A DNA stretch of 40,469 nt from an uncultured Bacilli bacterium (GCA_947626125.1 CANQRA010000003.1:1-40469), one strand, 5' to 3'. Shown: positions 25,961 through 29,752, counted from the stretch's first letter. Notes: a model not told the origin generated them from the letters alone. Program-made: numbers and translations.

Positions 25961-26989
25961 TTAATTTAGCAATAAAGTTATGGTTGTCTCAACACTTTGA
26001 AAAGTATTAGCACTCGGGGACATATAAACAACTTTATCACCACTGCCACTATACTTAACTTTAAAATCTTTTAAAGCTTTGGTGGCTTCGCTTTTACTCA
26101 TACCAACTACATCAGGTACAGCTAAATACTTAACATCTAAATAAGAATATTCTTTTAACATTCCGCCTTCTTGTTCTTTAATTCCTAAAGTTTCGATGGC
26201 GGATAGCAAAACACTTCGAGCTATGGGTGCGGAAACCGTCCCACCATACTGGGTAACACCTTTGGGATTATCGACGGCAACATAGACAACTACCTCGGGG
26301 TCATTCGCCGGTAAAAAACCAATGAATGATAAAGTATAATTCCCAACCATATATTTACCGTCGGCGACTTTTTGGGCAGTCCCGGTTTTTCCACCAACCC
26401 GATAATTTTCAATGTAAGCATTTTTCCCCGTTCCATTTGCCACAACACTTTCTAAAGCAAATCTTACTGTGGCACTTGTCTCAGGACTAATTACTTTGCG
26501 TTTTTCCTTCGGCTTATTTTCTAAAACAATCGCTTTACTTACATAATCACTAACACTTGATACCACATAAGGCGTATACAAAGTACCGCCATTAATCACG
26601 GCAGAAACCGCGGTAATTTGTTGGATGGGGGTAACACTGATACCTTGACCAAAAGCCGTTGTTGCTAGTTCTACCGGTCCCATTTTATCTTCTTTAAATA
26701 AAATACCATTACCTTCTCCATTTAAATCAATCCCTGTTTTACTGCCAAAGCCAAAGGCTTTAATATAACCCATTAATTTTTCGACCCCTAGTTTATTACC
26801 GAGAGAGACAAAGCCGGGGTTACAAGAATTTTCTACCACTTCTAAGTAAGTTTGGGTACCATGACCACCATGTTTCCAACAATGCAGGGTAGCCCCATCA
26901 ACAGTTATAGCACCTGTATCGGTAAAGGTATCTTTAAATAAATCAACCGTTTTCTCTTCTACAGTCGATGCTAAAGTGATAATTTTAAA
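25961..26989 (-). CDS. spoVD: spoVD 3' part (transpeptidase remainder plus PASTA), translated only after excision
   Basis: FKIITLAS.., SCN and KTG motifs, C-terminal PASTA; same frame as the 5' part. Confidence 0.88.
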   Translation of the reverse strand, partial: FKIITLASTVEEKTVDLFKDTFTDTGAITVDGATLHCWKHGGHGTQTYLEVVENSCNPGFVSLGNKLGVEKLMGYIKAFGFGSKTGIDLNGEGNGILFKEDKMGPVELATTAFGQGISVTPIQQITAVSAVINGGTLYTPYVVSSVSDYVSKAIVLENKPKEKRKVISPETSATVRFALESVVANGTGKNAYIENYRVGGKTGTAQKVADGKYMVGNYTLSFIGFLPANDPEVVVYVAVDNPKGVTQYGGTVSAPIARSVLLSAIETLGIKEQEGGMLKEYSYLDVKYLAVPDVVGMSKSEATKALKDFKVKYSGSGDKVVYMSPSANTFQSVETTITLLLN

Positions 26990-27008
26990 CGCCACTACCA
27001 TTTAGTGA
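26985..27008. repeat. att junction at spoVD 3' part (core plus attP arm)
   Basis: TT-AAACGCCACTACCATTTAGTGA; arm is a 17/22 inverted match to 29726-29747. Confidence 0.88.
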
Positions 27009-27025
27009 TTAAAAAAGAAGATGAG

Positions 27026-27790
27026 TTATTTATCTTCTAATTTAAAATTTAACATTTCTTTAGCAGCACTTTCATACAAATCTTGTTCATGTTTAATGGT
27101 GTCTATTAAAAACATTTTATCTTCTTTATAATTTTTTAATCCTCTCATATAATAGGGTTTATCACTATCAAGAACGATAAAAGGCATAATATTATTTTTC
27201 AAACATTCTTTAAACATAATCATCCTTCCTACTCTTCCATTACCATCTCCAAAAGGGTGAATTATCTCAAAACGATAATGAAATTCAATAATATCTTCAA
27301 GGGTAATTTTTTTTAAATTATTATACTCATTAAGTAAATTATCTAATTCTTTTTCCACATCTTCAGGTGCTGAAGTATTTATAACATTAATGAGGCCAAT
27401 TTTATTTGGTACTACTTTAAAACCACCAACATTATAACGGGGATTTTCTTCATCAGAAGTATTCCTTTTTAATATCATATTCATTTTAATCATTATTTCT
27501 TTTGTTAAATTTTCATCAATAATATCTAAACAATAATCAAAAAGGCGAAAATGATTTTTCATTTCAATTAAATCATCTAACTTAATGGCATCATCACTCT
27601 TAGGCATAAAGGAATCGGTGGCAAATATTTCTTCTGTTTCATCTTCCGTTAATTTACTACCTTCCATCTTATTAGAATTATAGGCAAAATTAACTTGTGA
27701 ATAATGATAAATATTCCCCTTAAATTTAGATTTTCGTTGCATAATTAATTCTTGTTTTATTTTATCTATTAGCATGTTATTCATCTCCAT
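27026..27790 (-). CDS. Fic-domain protein, class II (self-inhibited)
   Basis: HPFGDGNGRVGR catalytic motif; N-terminal SNKMEG inhibitory motif; true start may be ATG 27775 after GGAG. Confidence 0.92.
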   Translation of the reverse strand: MEMNNMLIDKIKQELIMQRKSKFKGNIYHYSQVNFAYNSNKMEGSKLTEDETEEIFATDSFMPKSDDAIKLDDLIEMKNHFRLFDYCLDIIDENLTKEIMIKMNMILKRNTSDEENPRYNVGGFKVVPNKIGLINVINTSAPEDVEKELDNLLNEYNNLKKITLEDIIEFHYRFEIIHPFGDGNGRVGRMIMFKECLKNNIMPFIVLDSDKPYYMRGLKNYKEDKMFLIDTIKHEQDLYESAAKEMLNFKLEDK

Positions 27791-27828
27791 TTAATACATT
27801 CATTATAACATATCCTCAAGAAAAAAAC

Positions 27829-29550
27829 TTATAATGTTTCAATATAGACATTATAAGTAAACTTATTTTTATTTTTTCTTTTATCTTCTTTTGTTACATA
27901 ATTTTTATTTTCTATGTATAATAATTCTTTATCTAAGGGTCCCTTTATATGTTTAGCTCCTTTATTCTTATTAATTATTAAATTATTTAAATTCAAATAA
28001 ATATCTAAATGAATATTATATCTATCATTATCTGTTTTAGATACAATAATTTCATCAACAAATTTTTTGATAAAATCTTCTAATAAATTAAATTCTAATT
28101 CATTTTCAATATATTTAAGTCTATCTAATTTATTTTGGTTTAAATTTAAAATATTTTCTCTTTCTCTTAAAATATCTTCTCTTTGTTTTTTTAAAATATT
28201 TAATTCTTGTTCATATTTTTTAAATTGTCCTTTTAATTCTTCTTTGGTTAATTCTTTATTAAACACTAAATCAAGAATCATTGTTTTCTTATCTTCAATT
28301 TTATTTATATCATCTTCAATAATTTTTAAATCATCATCTTGATTTAAACTTTCACTATCTTTATATAAGATATTTAAATCATTAATAATTTTATTTTTAT
28401 TTAAAGGTATACTTTTCATTATAGAATTCATTATATTATATAAATCAACTTCCCCAATAATTGGGGTTTCACAAGCCATAAGACGGTATTTTAAATACAT
28501 ACCACAACACCATACAGGACGTCTTTTTTTCTTACTACCATGACTTCTTTGAAAATTAGTATTATGATACTTACAATATATTTTAGAAGAAAAAGCATAT
28601 TTTAAACCTCCATTAAAATAATTATTACTTTGATAATTTTTAGTACGATTTTGCAATATCGCATTAGCTTGATTCCATAATTCTTCATTTACTATAGGAG
28701 GAATTATCTTTGCATCGGCCTTATAGATTACTTGTTTATCTTCGCTTATTTTAATTCTTTTCTTGGTACGATAATCTACTACTTCACTCGTTTTTCCGCG
28801 ATAATATCCTTTATATTTTGGATTAGATATAATTCTTTTTAAAGTATCTTTATCATAATAATTATCATTTTTATTATAAAAATTCAAACTAGCTAATACT
28901 TTTGATAATTTATATAAGCCGTAATTACCACTTGCATATAATTCAAATATCTTTCGAACTAATTTGGCTTCACTGGGAACAATTACTAATTTACAATTTT
29001 CTTTTTTATAGCCAATAATATTTGAGGAACCTAAAACATGACCTTTTTCTATAGCTTGCCTGTGACCAAATTTTACTCTTCCCGATAATTTTCTGGATTC
29101 ATCTTGGGCTAAATTAAACATTATATTTAAAATAAGTTCGGAATTAGCATCAAAAGTATTTAAATTTTGATTTTCAAAATAAATACCCACATTAGCGTTT
29201 TTTAATATTCTAATATAGTGAATACTATCTTCTAAATCACGGGCAAAACGGGATACTTCTTTAGTAATGATTAAATCAAATTTATGCTTTTTAGCATCAT
29301 CAATCATTTTTTTAAATCCCCATCTTTTGGCAACACTTACTCCTGATATTCCTTCATCAATATAACCATTAACATATGTCCAATTAGGTTTTGATTTAAT
29401 ATAGCTTTCATAATAGTTTTGTTGATTTTCTAAGCTATTTAATTGATGATCACTATCGGTTGATACACGTGCATAAAAACATACTCGAAGGGGTAAATTA
29501 GCTATTTTTTCCCCATTCATAACTAATTTAGCTATTTCTAAATAATTCAT
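27829..29550 (-). CDS. Large serine recombinase (SpoIVCA/CisA-like)
   Basis: YARVST catalytic Ser, DEGISG, SRFAR, recombinase domain (NPKYKG), Zn-ribbon-like CKYH..CC..C, coiled coil. Confidence 0.95.
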   Translation of the reverse strand: MNYLEIAKLVMNGEKIANLPLRVCFYARVSTDSDHQLNSLENQQNYYESYIKSKPNWTYVNGYIDEGISGVSVAKRWGFKKMIDDAKKHKFDLIITKEVSRFARDLEDSIHYIRILKNANVGIYFENQNLNTFDANSELILNIMFNLAQDESRKLSGRVKFGHRQAIEKGHVLGSSNIIGYKKENCKLVIVPSEAKLVRKIFELYASGNYGLYKLSKVLASLNFYNKNDNYYDKDTLKRIISNPKYKGYYRGKTSEVVDYRTKKRIKISEDKQVIYKADAKIIPPIVNEELWNQANAILQNRTKNYQSNNYFNGGLKYAFSSKIYCKYHNTNFQRSHGSKKKRRPVWCCGMYLKYRLMACETPIIGEVDLYNIMNSIMKSIPLNKNKIINDLNILYKDSESLNQDDDLKIIEDDINKIEDKKTMILDLVFNKELTKEELKGQFKKYEQELNILKKQREDILRERENILNLNQNKLDRLKYIENELEFNLLEDFIKKFVDEIIVSKTDNDRYNIHLDIYLNLNNLIINKNKGAKHIKGPLDKELLYIENKNYVTKEDKRKNKNKFTYNVYIETL

Positions 29551-29681
29551 TTATATTCCTCACATTTTTTTAATAATCTTTCATTAACATATAAAAATGT
29601 TTTTTCATCAATAATATTTTTTTTATATAAATTTTGATTAATAATAATTTCAATATTTAAATAAAACAAATAATTATTCAT
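29547..29681 (-). CDS. Unannotated 44-aa protein, candidate recombination directionality factor
   Basis: MNNYLFYLNIEIIINQNLYKKNIIDEKTFLYVNERLLKKCEEYK; RBS AGTGGTG; stop overlaps recombinase start (ATGA). Confidence 0.7.
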   Translation of the reverse strand: MNNYLFYLNIEIIINQNLYKKNIIDEKTFLYVNERLLKKCEEYK

Positions 29682-29725
29682 TTTCTTTCACCACTTAATA
29701 ATACGTTTTTATATTGATTATTATG

Positions 29726-29752
29726 TCACTAAACTGGCGTGGCGTTCTTAAA
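29726..29752. repeat. att junction at spoVD 5' part (attP arm plus core)
   Basis: TCACTAAACTGGCGTGGCGTTC-TTAAA. Confidence 0.88.

Follow-up and report, generated by a model that had tools for sequence, protein, structure and literature searches.

The 40,469-nucleotide stretch of DNA analysed here, referred to as the window and used for all coordinates, comes from an uncultured Bacilli bacterium (GCA_947626125.1, contig CANQRA010000003.1). A division and cell-wall (dcw) cluster runs along its minus strand with an ftsL-like gene, a gene for a 697-residue penicillin-binding protein (PBP), a second PBP gene, a mraY-like gene and a SEDS gene. The second PBP gene, of the sporulation type spoVD, is split in two by a small element with its own large serine recombinase (Table 1). 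Three open reading frames (ORFs) were found in the element, for a protein of 44 amino acids, the recombinase and a Fic-domain protein; all are oriented as spoVD, and the G+C content of the element is lower than that of the window (23.4% vs. 28.2%).

Both halves of the split PBP find their best NCBIfam model in TIGR02214 (spoVD_pbp), the 5′ half with 255.9 bits over model positions 2-295 and the 3′ half with 428.6 bits over positions 290-632. Together they carry dimerisation, transpeptidase and PASTA domains and follow the division PBP in the dcw cluster, a placement that agrees with the gene order in Bacillus subtilis. By models, domains and position the split gene is of the spoVD type, i.e. 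the gene of a spore-cortex transpeptidase. In B. subtilis, spoVD is described as a sigma-E-controlled mother-cell gene needed for the spore cortex (PMC517825). The host assembly (1.24 Mb, 90% complete) contains matches to Spo0A_C (133 bits) and SpoIVA (350 bits) as well as a spoIIGA gene adjoining a sigE-like gene, and its gene content is that of an endospore former, here a small-genome bacterium of the gut. Weak matches to sigma-factor models (E 1e-5 to 1e-11) were also seen on two host contigs, C4 (21458-21778 and 27460-27789) and C2 (20267-25686), where they fall inside open frames of 466-1206 amino acids.

In the integrated state, the frame of the 5′ part continues into the element (ORF 29729-30625) and its predicted product ends in F-E-P-G-S-T-F-K plus five foreign residues (N-A-T-P-V) before a stop at 29729. 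The ORF of the 3′ part (25961-27001) starts at 27001 within the element, whose outermost bases encode M-V-V-A-F ahead of K-I-I-T-L-A-S. When the two gene parts are joined at a shared AA dinucleotide, they read E-P-G-S-T-F-K-I-I-T-L-A-S in the same frame as the uninterrupted relatives, all 14 of which, among the 14 examined, read straight through the site as EPGSTFKIITL(A/S). Precise excision would therefore restore the intact frame. Among 24 genomes of the same genus, 13 have an uninterrupted frame and nine an interrupted one, one gene is cut by a contig end and one genome is without an orthologue. An empty site is also present in a contig of the unrelated sequencing run X5, ~91% identical to the window, which joins 26984 to 29748 and thereby skips exactly 2763 bases, with five ambiguous letters.

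Along the gene, the upstream junction reads GGTTCAACTTTT-AA followed by the P′ arm GAACGCCACGCCAGTTTAGTGA, and the downstream junction consists of the P arm TCACTAAATGGTAGTGGCGTTT followed by AA-AATTATCACTTTAGC of the 3′ gene part. A preliminary description of this DNA had proposed that joining the element ends yields an attP dyad with 22-bp arms and 17/22 inverted identity around a central AA, and our recalculation returned the same 17/22. The dyad has a single sharp centre on the AA (15/20 there; the 12 further 2-bp centres give 7 or fewer, and the odd centres tried give 8 or fewer). Such symmetry is rare by chance: 17 matches were reached by two of 200,000 unlinked 22-mer pairs from the AT-rich window and by six of 200,000 random window positions, and an exhaustive scan of the window found only two such positions. 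The attB site formed by the host-side arms is far less symmetric (7/22 vs. 17/22 in attP). The preliminary description had 29752 as its end coordinate, which overshoots the AA of attL by three bases.

Both junctions of the window share five base pairs, TTTAA; thus, junction identity alone would also permit TT or TA, and within the window only symmetry selects AA. We therefore turn to the 16 related elements with both junctions readable. In two of these (L070, L082), attL and attR have exactly AA in common; the shared stretch lacks a left extension in four and a right extension in six, and the intersection over all 16 is AA, while symmetry ranges from 10 to 17/22 in attP and from 5 to 12/22 in attB. 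AA is the only sequence common to all attL/attR pairs, and the crossover is therefore placed, by this comparison, on codon positions 1-2 of the catalytic Lys of S-T-F-K, the codon that had been suggested from the window alone. Moreover, the inner arm sequences co-vary between elements, as expected for a dimer-binding dyad. All four half-sites keep A at -6 and T at -2, and T at -3 is kept in three of them (P, P′, B), shared positions that fit a single DNA-binding domain reading them, in line with the published descriptions (PMC3783163, PMC12286644). Further outward, C-T-A-A-A occupies positions -19 to -15 of both P arms and appears again in the B′ arm, 5 bp closer to the centre; this shift is in keeping with the published model, which has the zinc-ribbon domain contact attP 5 bp farther from the centre than attB (PMC3783163). 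Taken together, the sites fit the serine-integrase pattern of a quasi-palindromic attP of ~50 bp, a shorter and less symmetric attB and a common core restricted to the central, non-palindromic dinucleotide. The further proposal that this is a site the host cannot easily mutate gains from both Lys codons starting with AA and from the similar crossovers of sister clades described below, and as an interpretation it seems plausible.

That the enzyme is a serine integrase, as had also been proposed, is borne out by its Pfam domains, i.e. Resolvase (PF00239, 1.3e-29, residues 25-171), Recombinase (PF07508, 1.1e-15) and, just below the cut-off of 25.3 bits, Zn_ribbon_recom (PF13408, 6.2e-5, 23.7 bits). 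Enzymes of this type have a Recombinase domain (DBD1) and behind it a zinc-ribbon domain (DBD2) into which a coiled coil is inserted. S30 in Y-A-R-V-S-T is invariant in six of six orthologues and, from its position, is probably the serine nucleophile; C326, C349 and C360 are likewise invariant in the six aligned sequences. The best NCBIfam models are CcrC (96.7 bits), CcrB (87.6) and XisF (68.2), scores so far below the respective cut-offs (900, 900 and 375) that the enzyme belongs to none of these families, and NCBIfam gave no SpoIVCA-specific match. The solved structure closest to the catalytic domain is 3g13, a “putative conjugative transposon recombinase” (E 9.2e-37). Two more large serine recombinases are encoded in the host genome, on contigs C25 (53-1846) and C72 (1498-3351), 30-32% identical to that of the window. 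The one on C72 adjoins a relaxase-like ORF, and the short flanks of both contain no split sporulation gene.

Site specificity is conserved over considerable divergence. Orthologues interrupt spoVD at the same place in five further genomes of the genus (85, 82, 64, 60 and 49% identity), and orthologues of 46-86% identity occupy this site, here called site A, in other genomes. In a scan of public loci with one genome per species, 37 loci had a recombinase at least 46% identical to that of the window, and 34 of these showed a spoVD junction at this codon; of the remaining three, L083 ends before any flank, and L104 and L105 are partial matches outside the clade. The spoVD genes of the carrier hosts are just ~50-75% identical to that of the window. 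In a FastTree phylogeny, the window enzyme falls in a clade of 35 rows with support 100, comprising 32 rows labelled as site A plus L077, L085 and L083. The nearest outgroup clade is formed by L102, L108 and L115, and no PBP fragment adjoins its recombinases. In L077, the recombinase gene adjoins the 5′ gene part and points at it, opposite to the other elements, and its attL looks standard.

Integration by such enzymes needs the recombinase and two sites, whereas excision needs a second protein, according to the accounts of related systems (PMC12286644, PMC5595907). Recombinase, attP and attB had been announced as a ready-to-test integrase system, and all three are supported here, but for excision a directionality factor would normally have to be added. 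The 44-residue ORF directly upstream of the recombinase gene is a likely candidate. A motif scan found a counterpart upstream of 23 distinct recombinases of the clade, including all six aligned ones, and the small ORF is conserved ahead of recombinases just 47-86% identical to that of the window, with I13, I14, N15, L18, I24, E26 and V32 invariant in an alignment of six rows. Similar small ORFs precede the recombinases of two further insertion sites, B and C. A Pfam search of the 44-residue protein matched no family; one relative has a SHOCT_2 match below threshold (E 0.014).

A complex model of the 44-residue protein with recombinase residues 300-573 reached an ipSAE of 0.76 (0.70, 0.76 and 0.77 in the individual runs), compared to 0.00 for the best of three controls. 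The runs agreed in at least 81% of contacts, and the pLDDT of the partner was at least 82. In the calibration of the tool, 116 of 157 solved complexes and two of 215 mismatched pairs reach the mark, counts that apply only roughly here, as the model was built with our own alignments. The modelled contacts lie at 383-400, 476-497 and 521-524 of the recombinase, which would correspond to two segments of the coiled-coil base, whose position is suggested by the first two contact stretches, and a piece of DBD2. Known directionality factors bind the base of the coiled coil or its junction with DBD2 in the systems described (PMC12286644). The model thus supports binding of the small protein to the coiled-coil base of the recombinase and, together with its conserved position, makes a role as directionality factor likely.

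The third gene of the element appears to be exchangeable cargo. The Fic/DOC family is defined by the motif H-x-F-x-(D/E)-G-N-G-R-x-x-R. The encoded protein has both the domain and the motif (HPFGDGNGRVGR at residues 178-189, which we take to be the active-site motif) as well as S-x-x-x-E-G, presumably an inhibitory motif, and on this basis it is a member of the family. Related elements carry a Fic gene, a 430-residue ORF, or membrane and other ORFs as cargo. The Fic proteins of six loci (L066, L067, L068, L082, L083, L084) are 84-88% identical to that of the window, with adjoining recombinases as low as 57-64%; the cassette therefore seems to be mobile between elements or much more constrained. 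No phage genes were found in the element, and none of the ORFs in its 2.76 kb is a replication or partition gene.

Table 1. Features of the interrupted spoVD locus in window coordinates.
Feature	Coordinates	Strand	Basis or remark
Whole element, 2763 bp with one copy of AA	26987..29749	-	Junctions; empty site in a relative
attL: B arm 29750-29771, crossover AA 29748-29749, P′ arm 29726-29747	29726..29771	-	Junction reading, relatives
attR: P arm 26987-27008, crossover AA 26985-26986, B′ arm 26963-26984	26963..27008	-	Junction reading, relatives
5′ part of split spoVD-type class B PBP, through AA of the S-T-F-K Lys codon	29748..30625	-	ORF; Pfam PBP_dimer and start of Transpeptidase
3′ part of split spoVD-type PBP, Lys codon to stop	25961..26986	-	ORF; Pfam Transpeptidase 2.3e-62 and PASTA
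44-residue ORF, candidate recombination directionality factor	29550..29681	-	Stop overlaps recombinase ATG (ATGA)
Large serine recombinase (integrase), 573 residues	27829..29550	-	Pfam Resolvase, Recombinase, Zn_ribbon_recom
Fic-domain cargo gene, 254 residues	27026..27790	-	Pfam Fic PF02661, 6.9e-14
ftsL-like gene	32761-33060	-	ORF and profile models
Class B PBP, 697 residues, division/vegetative type	30658-32751	-	388.8 bits on TIGR02214
mraY-like gene	24889-25881	-	ORF and profile models
SEDS gene, best model SpoVE (spoVE/ftsW-like)	23781-24866	-	ORF and NCBIfam

Site A is one of three codons at which spoVD is interrupted. Site B is the Asn codon of E-N-S-C-N-P-G-F (SxN motif) and is occupied in L053 (genome G002), L056 (G006), L058 (G012), L057 and L059 (G021) and L065 (G053) by recombinases of a sister clade that are 38-40% identical to that of the window. 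Here, the crossover is again AA, which in G012 and G021 is exactly what the junctions share and on which the symmetry is centred in G002 and G006 (16-17/26). Site C, the first Gln codon of T-P-I-Q-Q, is occupied in L055 (G014), L089, L124, L061 (G016) and L060 (G003) by another sister clade (42-45% identity to the window enzyme) with CA as crossover; the junctions of L124 share exactly this dinucleotide, and the symmetry is centred on it in G014 (19/26) and L089. The recombinases of sites B and C form clades of seven and nine rows, respectively, with support 100 each, and the three clades, joined by a single small outgroup clade, form a group with support 95 (FastTree). At all three sites, the crossover as read from the junctions covers the first two positions of a codon for a conserved residue that is encoded by just two codons.

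Two of these elements can reside in one spoVD gene, namely A and B in G002 (L053), A and C in L089, B and C in L124, with further cases in L066, L069, L081 and others; the doubly interrupted genes consist of three pieces, all of them open. In genome G008 (L054 and L062, contigs C14 and C18), one fragment covers residues 1-127 of the 3′ part and another, on a different contig, residues 60-347, an overlap that misfits a single gene copy and may stem from a strain mixture or from two copies.

Transcription of the element might be coupled to that of spoVD in two ways. No terminator-like site was found between the 5′ fragment of spoVD and the small ORF in a scan of 25800-33200, and given the same orientation of all genes, spoVD transcription could thus run into the ORFs of the element. 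A sigma-70 scan of this region gave 50 promoter-like sites vs. 43.4 expected and is uninformative on regulation. Further, the leader of the small ORF (43 nucleotides) aligns best with that of spoVD (also 43 nucleotides) among 931 ORF leaders of the genome, with a local score of 25 and a next-best of 18. The small-ORF leader (29682-29724) is a near-copy of the spoVD leader (30626-30668), both on the minus strand, and within the 1.24-Mb assembly the string A-A-A-A-A-C-(G/A)-T-A-T-T-A-T-T..A-G-T-G-G-T-G-A-A-A is confined to them. Nine relatives of the genus keep the spoVD version ahead of the gene. We rejected the shorter A-A-C-(A/G)-T-A-T-T-A-T-T as a general promoter or regulon motif; it has nine matches in the genome, and the extended context is found just at the spoVD and small-ORF copies.

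The two boxes of sigma-E promoters are spaced by 14 nucleotides. In two other subclades, the small ORF is preceded at constant positions by sigma-E-like boxes, either as TCATAAT/TCATATT, 14 nucleotides and CATACGAT, or as CATACACT. Scores per locus are barely above those of shuffled sequences (11-14/15 observed, shuffle mean ~12), and it is the positional conservation of these boxes, compared with the published sigma-E consensus (bioRxiv 10.1101/2020.04.13.040188), that we find suggestive.

Two lines of evidence argue that the split gene is still used. The ratio of nonsynonymous to synonymous substitution rates (dN/dS) is 0.06-0.20 between split copies and 0.05-0.17 between intact ones, at synonymous rates (dS) of 0.8-1.5 and 0.7-1.0, respectively, and no split fragment has an internal stop or frameshift. 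Purifying selection is thus similar to that on intact copies, and the arrangement persists in hosts whose spoVD genes have diverged to 50-75% identity. Read evidence was drawn from assembled Logan contigs of four runs, X1-X3 from the likely source sample and X5. In X1-X3, attL and attR are both bridged by contigs, which in X1 span 27203-29840 and 26929-27161 without mismatches. An exact pattern scan for the P arm in metagenome contigs gave no matches, and a regular-expression scan of loci L066-L114 gave 11, each followed by coding sequence for K-I-(I/V)-T and never by the P′ arm. In X1-X3, contigs of the element (27100-29850) have a mean word depth of 14.5-20 and the flanking gene parts ~3-7; depth does not equal copy number, and the difference could stem from the presence of the element in several strains or from additional copies.

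Serine-recombinase elements that interrupt mother-cell genes and are excised in the mother cell have been reported for sigK, spsM, spoVFB, spoVR, gerE and yabG (PMC4191935, PMC5595907, PMC10747680). The host being a spore former and the gene being spoVD, a developmental role is the likeliest one, and on balance we consider it probable that the element is a skin-like sporulation gene-intervening element that is excised in the sporulating mother cell. For integration, the recombinase would bind the ~46-bp quasi-palindromic attP formed by both ends of the element as well as an attB of far lower symmetry encoding E-P-G-S-T-F-K-I-I-T-L, cleave the two sites at the central AA, which makes up positions 1-2 of the catalytic Lys codon, and exchange strands. 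In the vegetative and forespore (germ-line) chromosome, spoVD would stay split and inactive, with the Ser-x-x-Lys motif on one fragment and the remaining transpeptidase domain on the other. In the sporulating mother cell, recombinase and small protein would be made, with transcription either reading through from spoVD or starting from the spoVD-like leader. The small protein would then bind the coiled-coil base and switch the recombinase to attL x attR recombination, upon which the element would leave as a circle and intact spoVD would be restored without a scar.

Several observations weigh against this interpretation. Logan contigs of the four runs contained neither a circle junction nor an empty site of the same strain, and the X5 contig, being ~9% diverged, belongs to a relative. 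In the window, the sigma-E-type site that scores highest ahead of the small ORF reaches 11/15, and shuffled sequence performs equally well (mean 11.8). Moreover, spoVD lies 32 bp behind the vegetative-type PBP gene, and read-through might also take place in growing cells. The simple sum of both gene halves on TIGR02214 (684.5) is just below the cut-off of 688. The search of the 90%-complete host assembly gave no SpoIIID and no gene above the cut-off of the sigma-K model, the best match being the sigE-like gene; late events in the mother cell may therefore depart from the Bacillus model, and the sporulation gene set may be reduced or both genes might sit in the missing 10%. The 5-bp outward shift of the outer motif from attB to attP is absent for the B arm and restricted to the B′ arm, and it is weak overall, with a match of 0.33-0.38 at shifts of 5-6 vs. 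0.17-0.29 elsewhere (0.33 at one other shift). Finally, all genomes compared are metagenome bins of uncultured organisms.

The missing excision product would be readily explained if this were an ordinary site-specific mobile element that targets spoVD as a gene dispensable for growth and excises only for transfer or never, with sporulation lost or lowered in its host. The lack of a convincing sporulation promoter in the window element points the same way, as do the similarity of the catalytic domain to 3g13, the other serine recombinase elements of the host genome, one of them beside a relaxase-like gene, and the uninterrupted gene in 13 of 24 relatives. However, a gene that is never reassembled should decay, and the split copies, at dS of 0.8-1.5, have dN/dS values like those of intact copies and are free of stops and frameshifts. 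Genes with two elements keep every fragment open, and the arrangement recurs in 34 loci whose hosts have strongly diverged spoVD genes. An ordinary mobile element is therefore a doubtful explanation, to which we assign a low probability. We regard as unlikely, too, though with slightly more room for it, a reversible switch of sporulation capacity akin to “active lysogeny”, in which excision and re-integration would follow an environmental or population cue acting on the whole cell, and not mother-cell development, and would produce mixed sporulating and non-sporulating subpopulations. An integrase with a likely directionality factor can run in both directions according to the systems described (PMC5595907, PMC12286644), such a tiny element could persist as a circle, and the higher depth of its contigs would be compatible with this, within the limit that depth is no measure of copy number. 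Against it stand the missing circle junction and the gene content of the element: without a replication or partition gene, the circle, once excised, would not be maintained as cells divide. In the literature we draw on, every characterised element of a mother-cell gene is excised in the terminal mother cell (PMC4191935, PMC5595907).

Recombination would not be needed at all if the two fragments acted as a split enzyme or if the split were an artefact of assembly or binning. Both fragments are indeed open, and the P arm provides an ATG (M-V-V-A-F-K) before the 3′ part. But no ribosome-binding sequence is visible ahead of this ATG, and the break directly after Ser-x-x-Lys would leave the nucleophile on one chain and SxN with the remaining domain on the other. 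An artefact is contradicted by independent contigs of three runs that bridge both junctions with zero mismatches and by the same junctions in dozens of independent assemblies. We consequently reject both variants as extremely improbable. Mother-cell excision of a skin-like element hence remains the interpretation we prefer for the window, and it can be extended to the other insertion sites in a more speculative manner. Three sister integrase lineages, each with its own partner from one family of proteins of ~44-68 amino acids, might have colonised one sporulation gene at the codons of its best-conserved residues (Lys of SxxK, Asn of SxN and Gln of TPIQ), each with its 2-bp crossover on the two positions beyond the reach of synonymous change, and in some genomes with two or possibly three elements cutting spoVD at once. 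Cortex synthesis in these reduced-genome gut Bacilli would then need several independent excisions in the mother cell, driven in the subclade of the window by a leader copied from spoVD. This combined scenario is possible, although we hold it to be somewhat more likely wrong than right; if true, it would mean that a structural enzyme, and not a regulator, is subject to a multi-lock DNA checkpoint.

The most fitting description of the element is that of a very small new case of the sporulation gene-intervening elements (skin, SPbeta, vfbin, vrin, gin, yin), of a known type with a target, spoVD, that we found undescribed: a full-text literature search, with subscription journals mostly outside its coverage, found no description of an element interrupting this gene. 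If excision takes place as proposed, spoVD, a structural cortex enzyme, would join the sporulation genes listed above that are rebuilt at the DNA level. It would place the phenomenon in an uncultured small-genome gut lineage in which sporulation is hardly studied. The three crossovers on synonymous-invariant positions of conserved codons suggest a simple rule for securing a stable target. Further, the computationally defined sets of integrase, attP, attB and candidate factor for three target sites are compact and might be useful as orthogonal recombination tools.

Among large serine recombinases, XisF of the fdxN element in cyanobacterial heterocysts as well as CcrC and CcrB of SCCmec resemble the window enzyme. 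XisF rebuilds a gene in a terminally differentiated cell. The attachment sites share features with those of Listeria phage A118-type (LI) integrases, i.e. common inner half-site positions and an outer motif shifted by 5 bp (PMC3783163), a likeness limited by the weak shift here and its absence for the B arm. The skin element with SpoIVCA in sigK of B. subtilis and other Firmicutes likewise splits a mother-cell gene by means of an element-encoded large serine recombinase, and its excision rebuilds sigK (PMC4191935, bioRxiv 10.1101/2022.02.25.481979). In the skin elements of the latter study the recombinase gene sits in all cases at the element's edge and the cargo varies, as is the case here, although skin has a size of 48 kb compared to 2.76 kb (bioRxiv 10.1101/2022.02.25.481979). 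Unlike skin, the element described here targets spoVD instead of sigK, is free of phage genes and is known from its sequence, from which excision is predicted. In SPbeta, the integrase SprA acts with the small factor SprB, which binds at the coiled-coil base and DBD2 (PMC12286644), an arrangement similar to that predicted by our complex model, and spsM is reconstituted in the mother cell (PMC4191935, PMC5499854). SPbeta is an active phage, in contrast to the phage-gene-free element in spoVD. The gin element in gerE of Bacillus cereus ATCC 10987 is, like ours, a non-phage element with a serine integrase (GirC) and a tiny factor (GirX), although it comprises 31 genes with three recombinases instead of three ORFs (PMC5595907). 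GirX is a proven factor of 42 amino acids, similar in size to the 44-residue protein, and cleavage of gin has been predicted at an AA amid an inverted repeat (PMC5595907), as it is here for spoVD.

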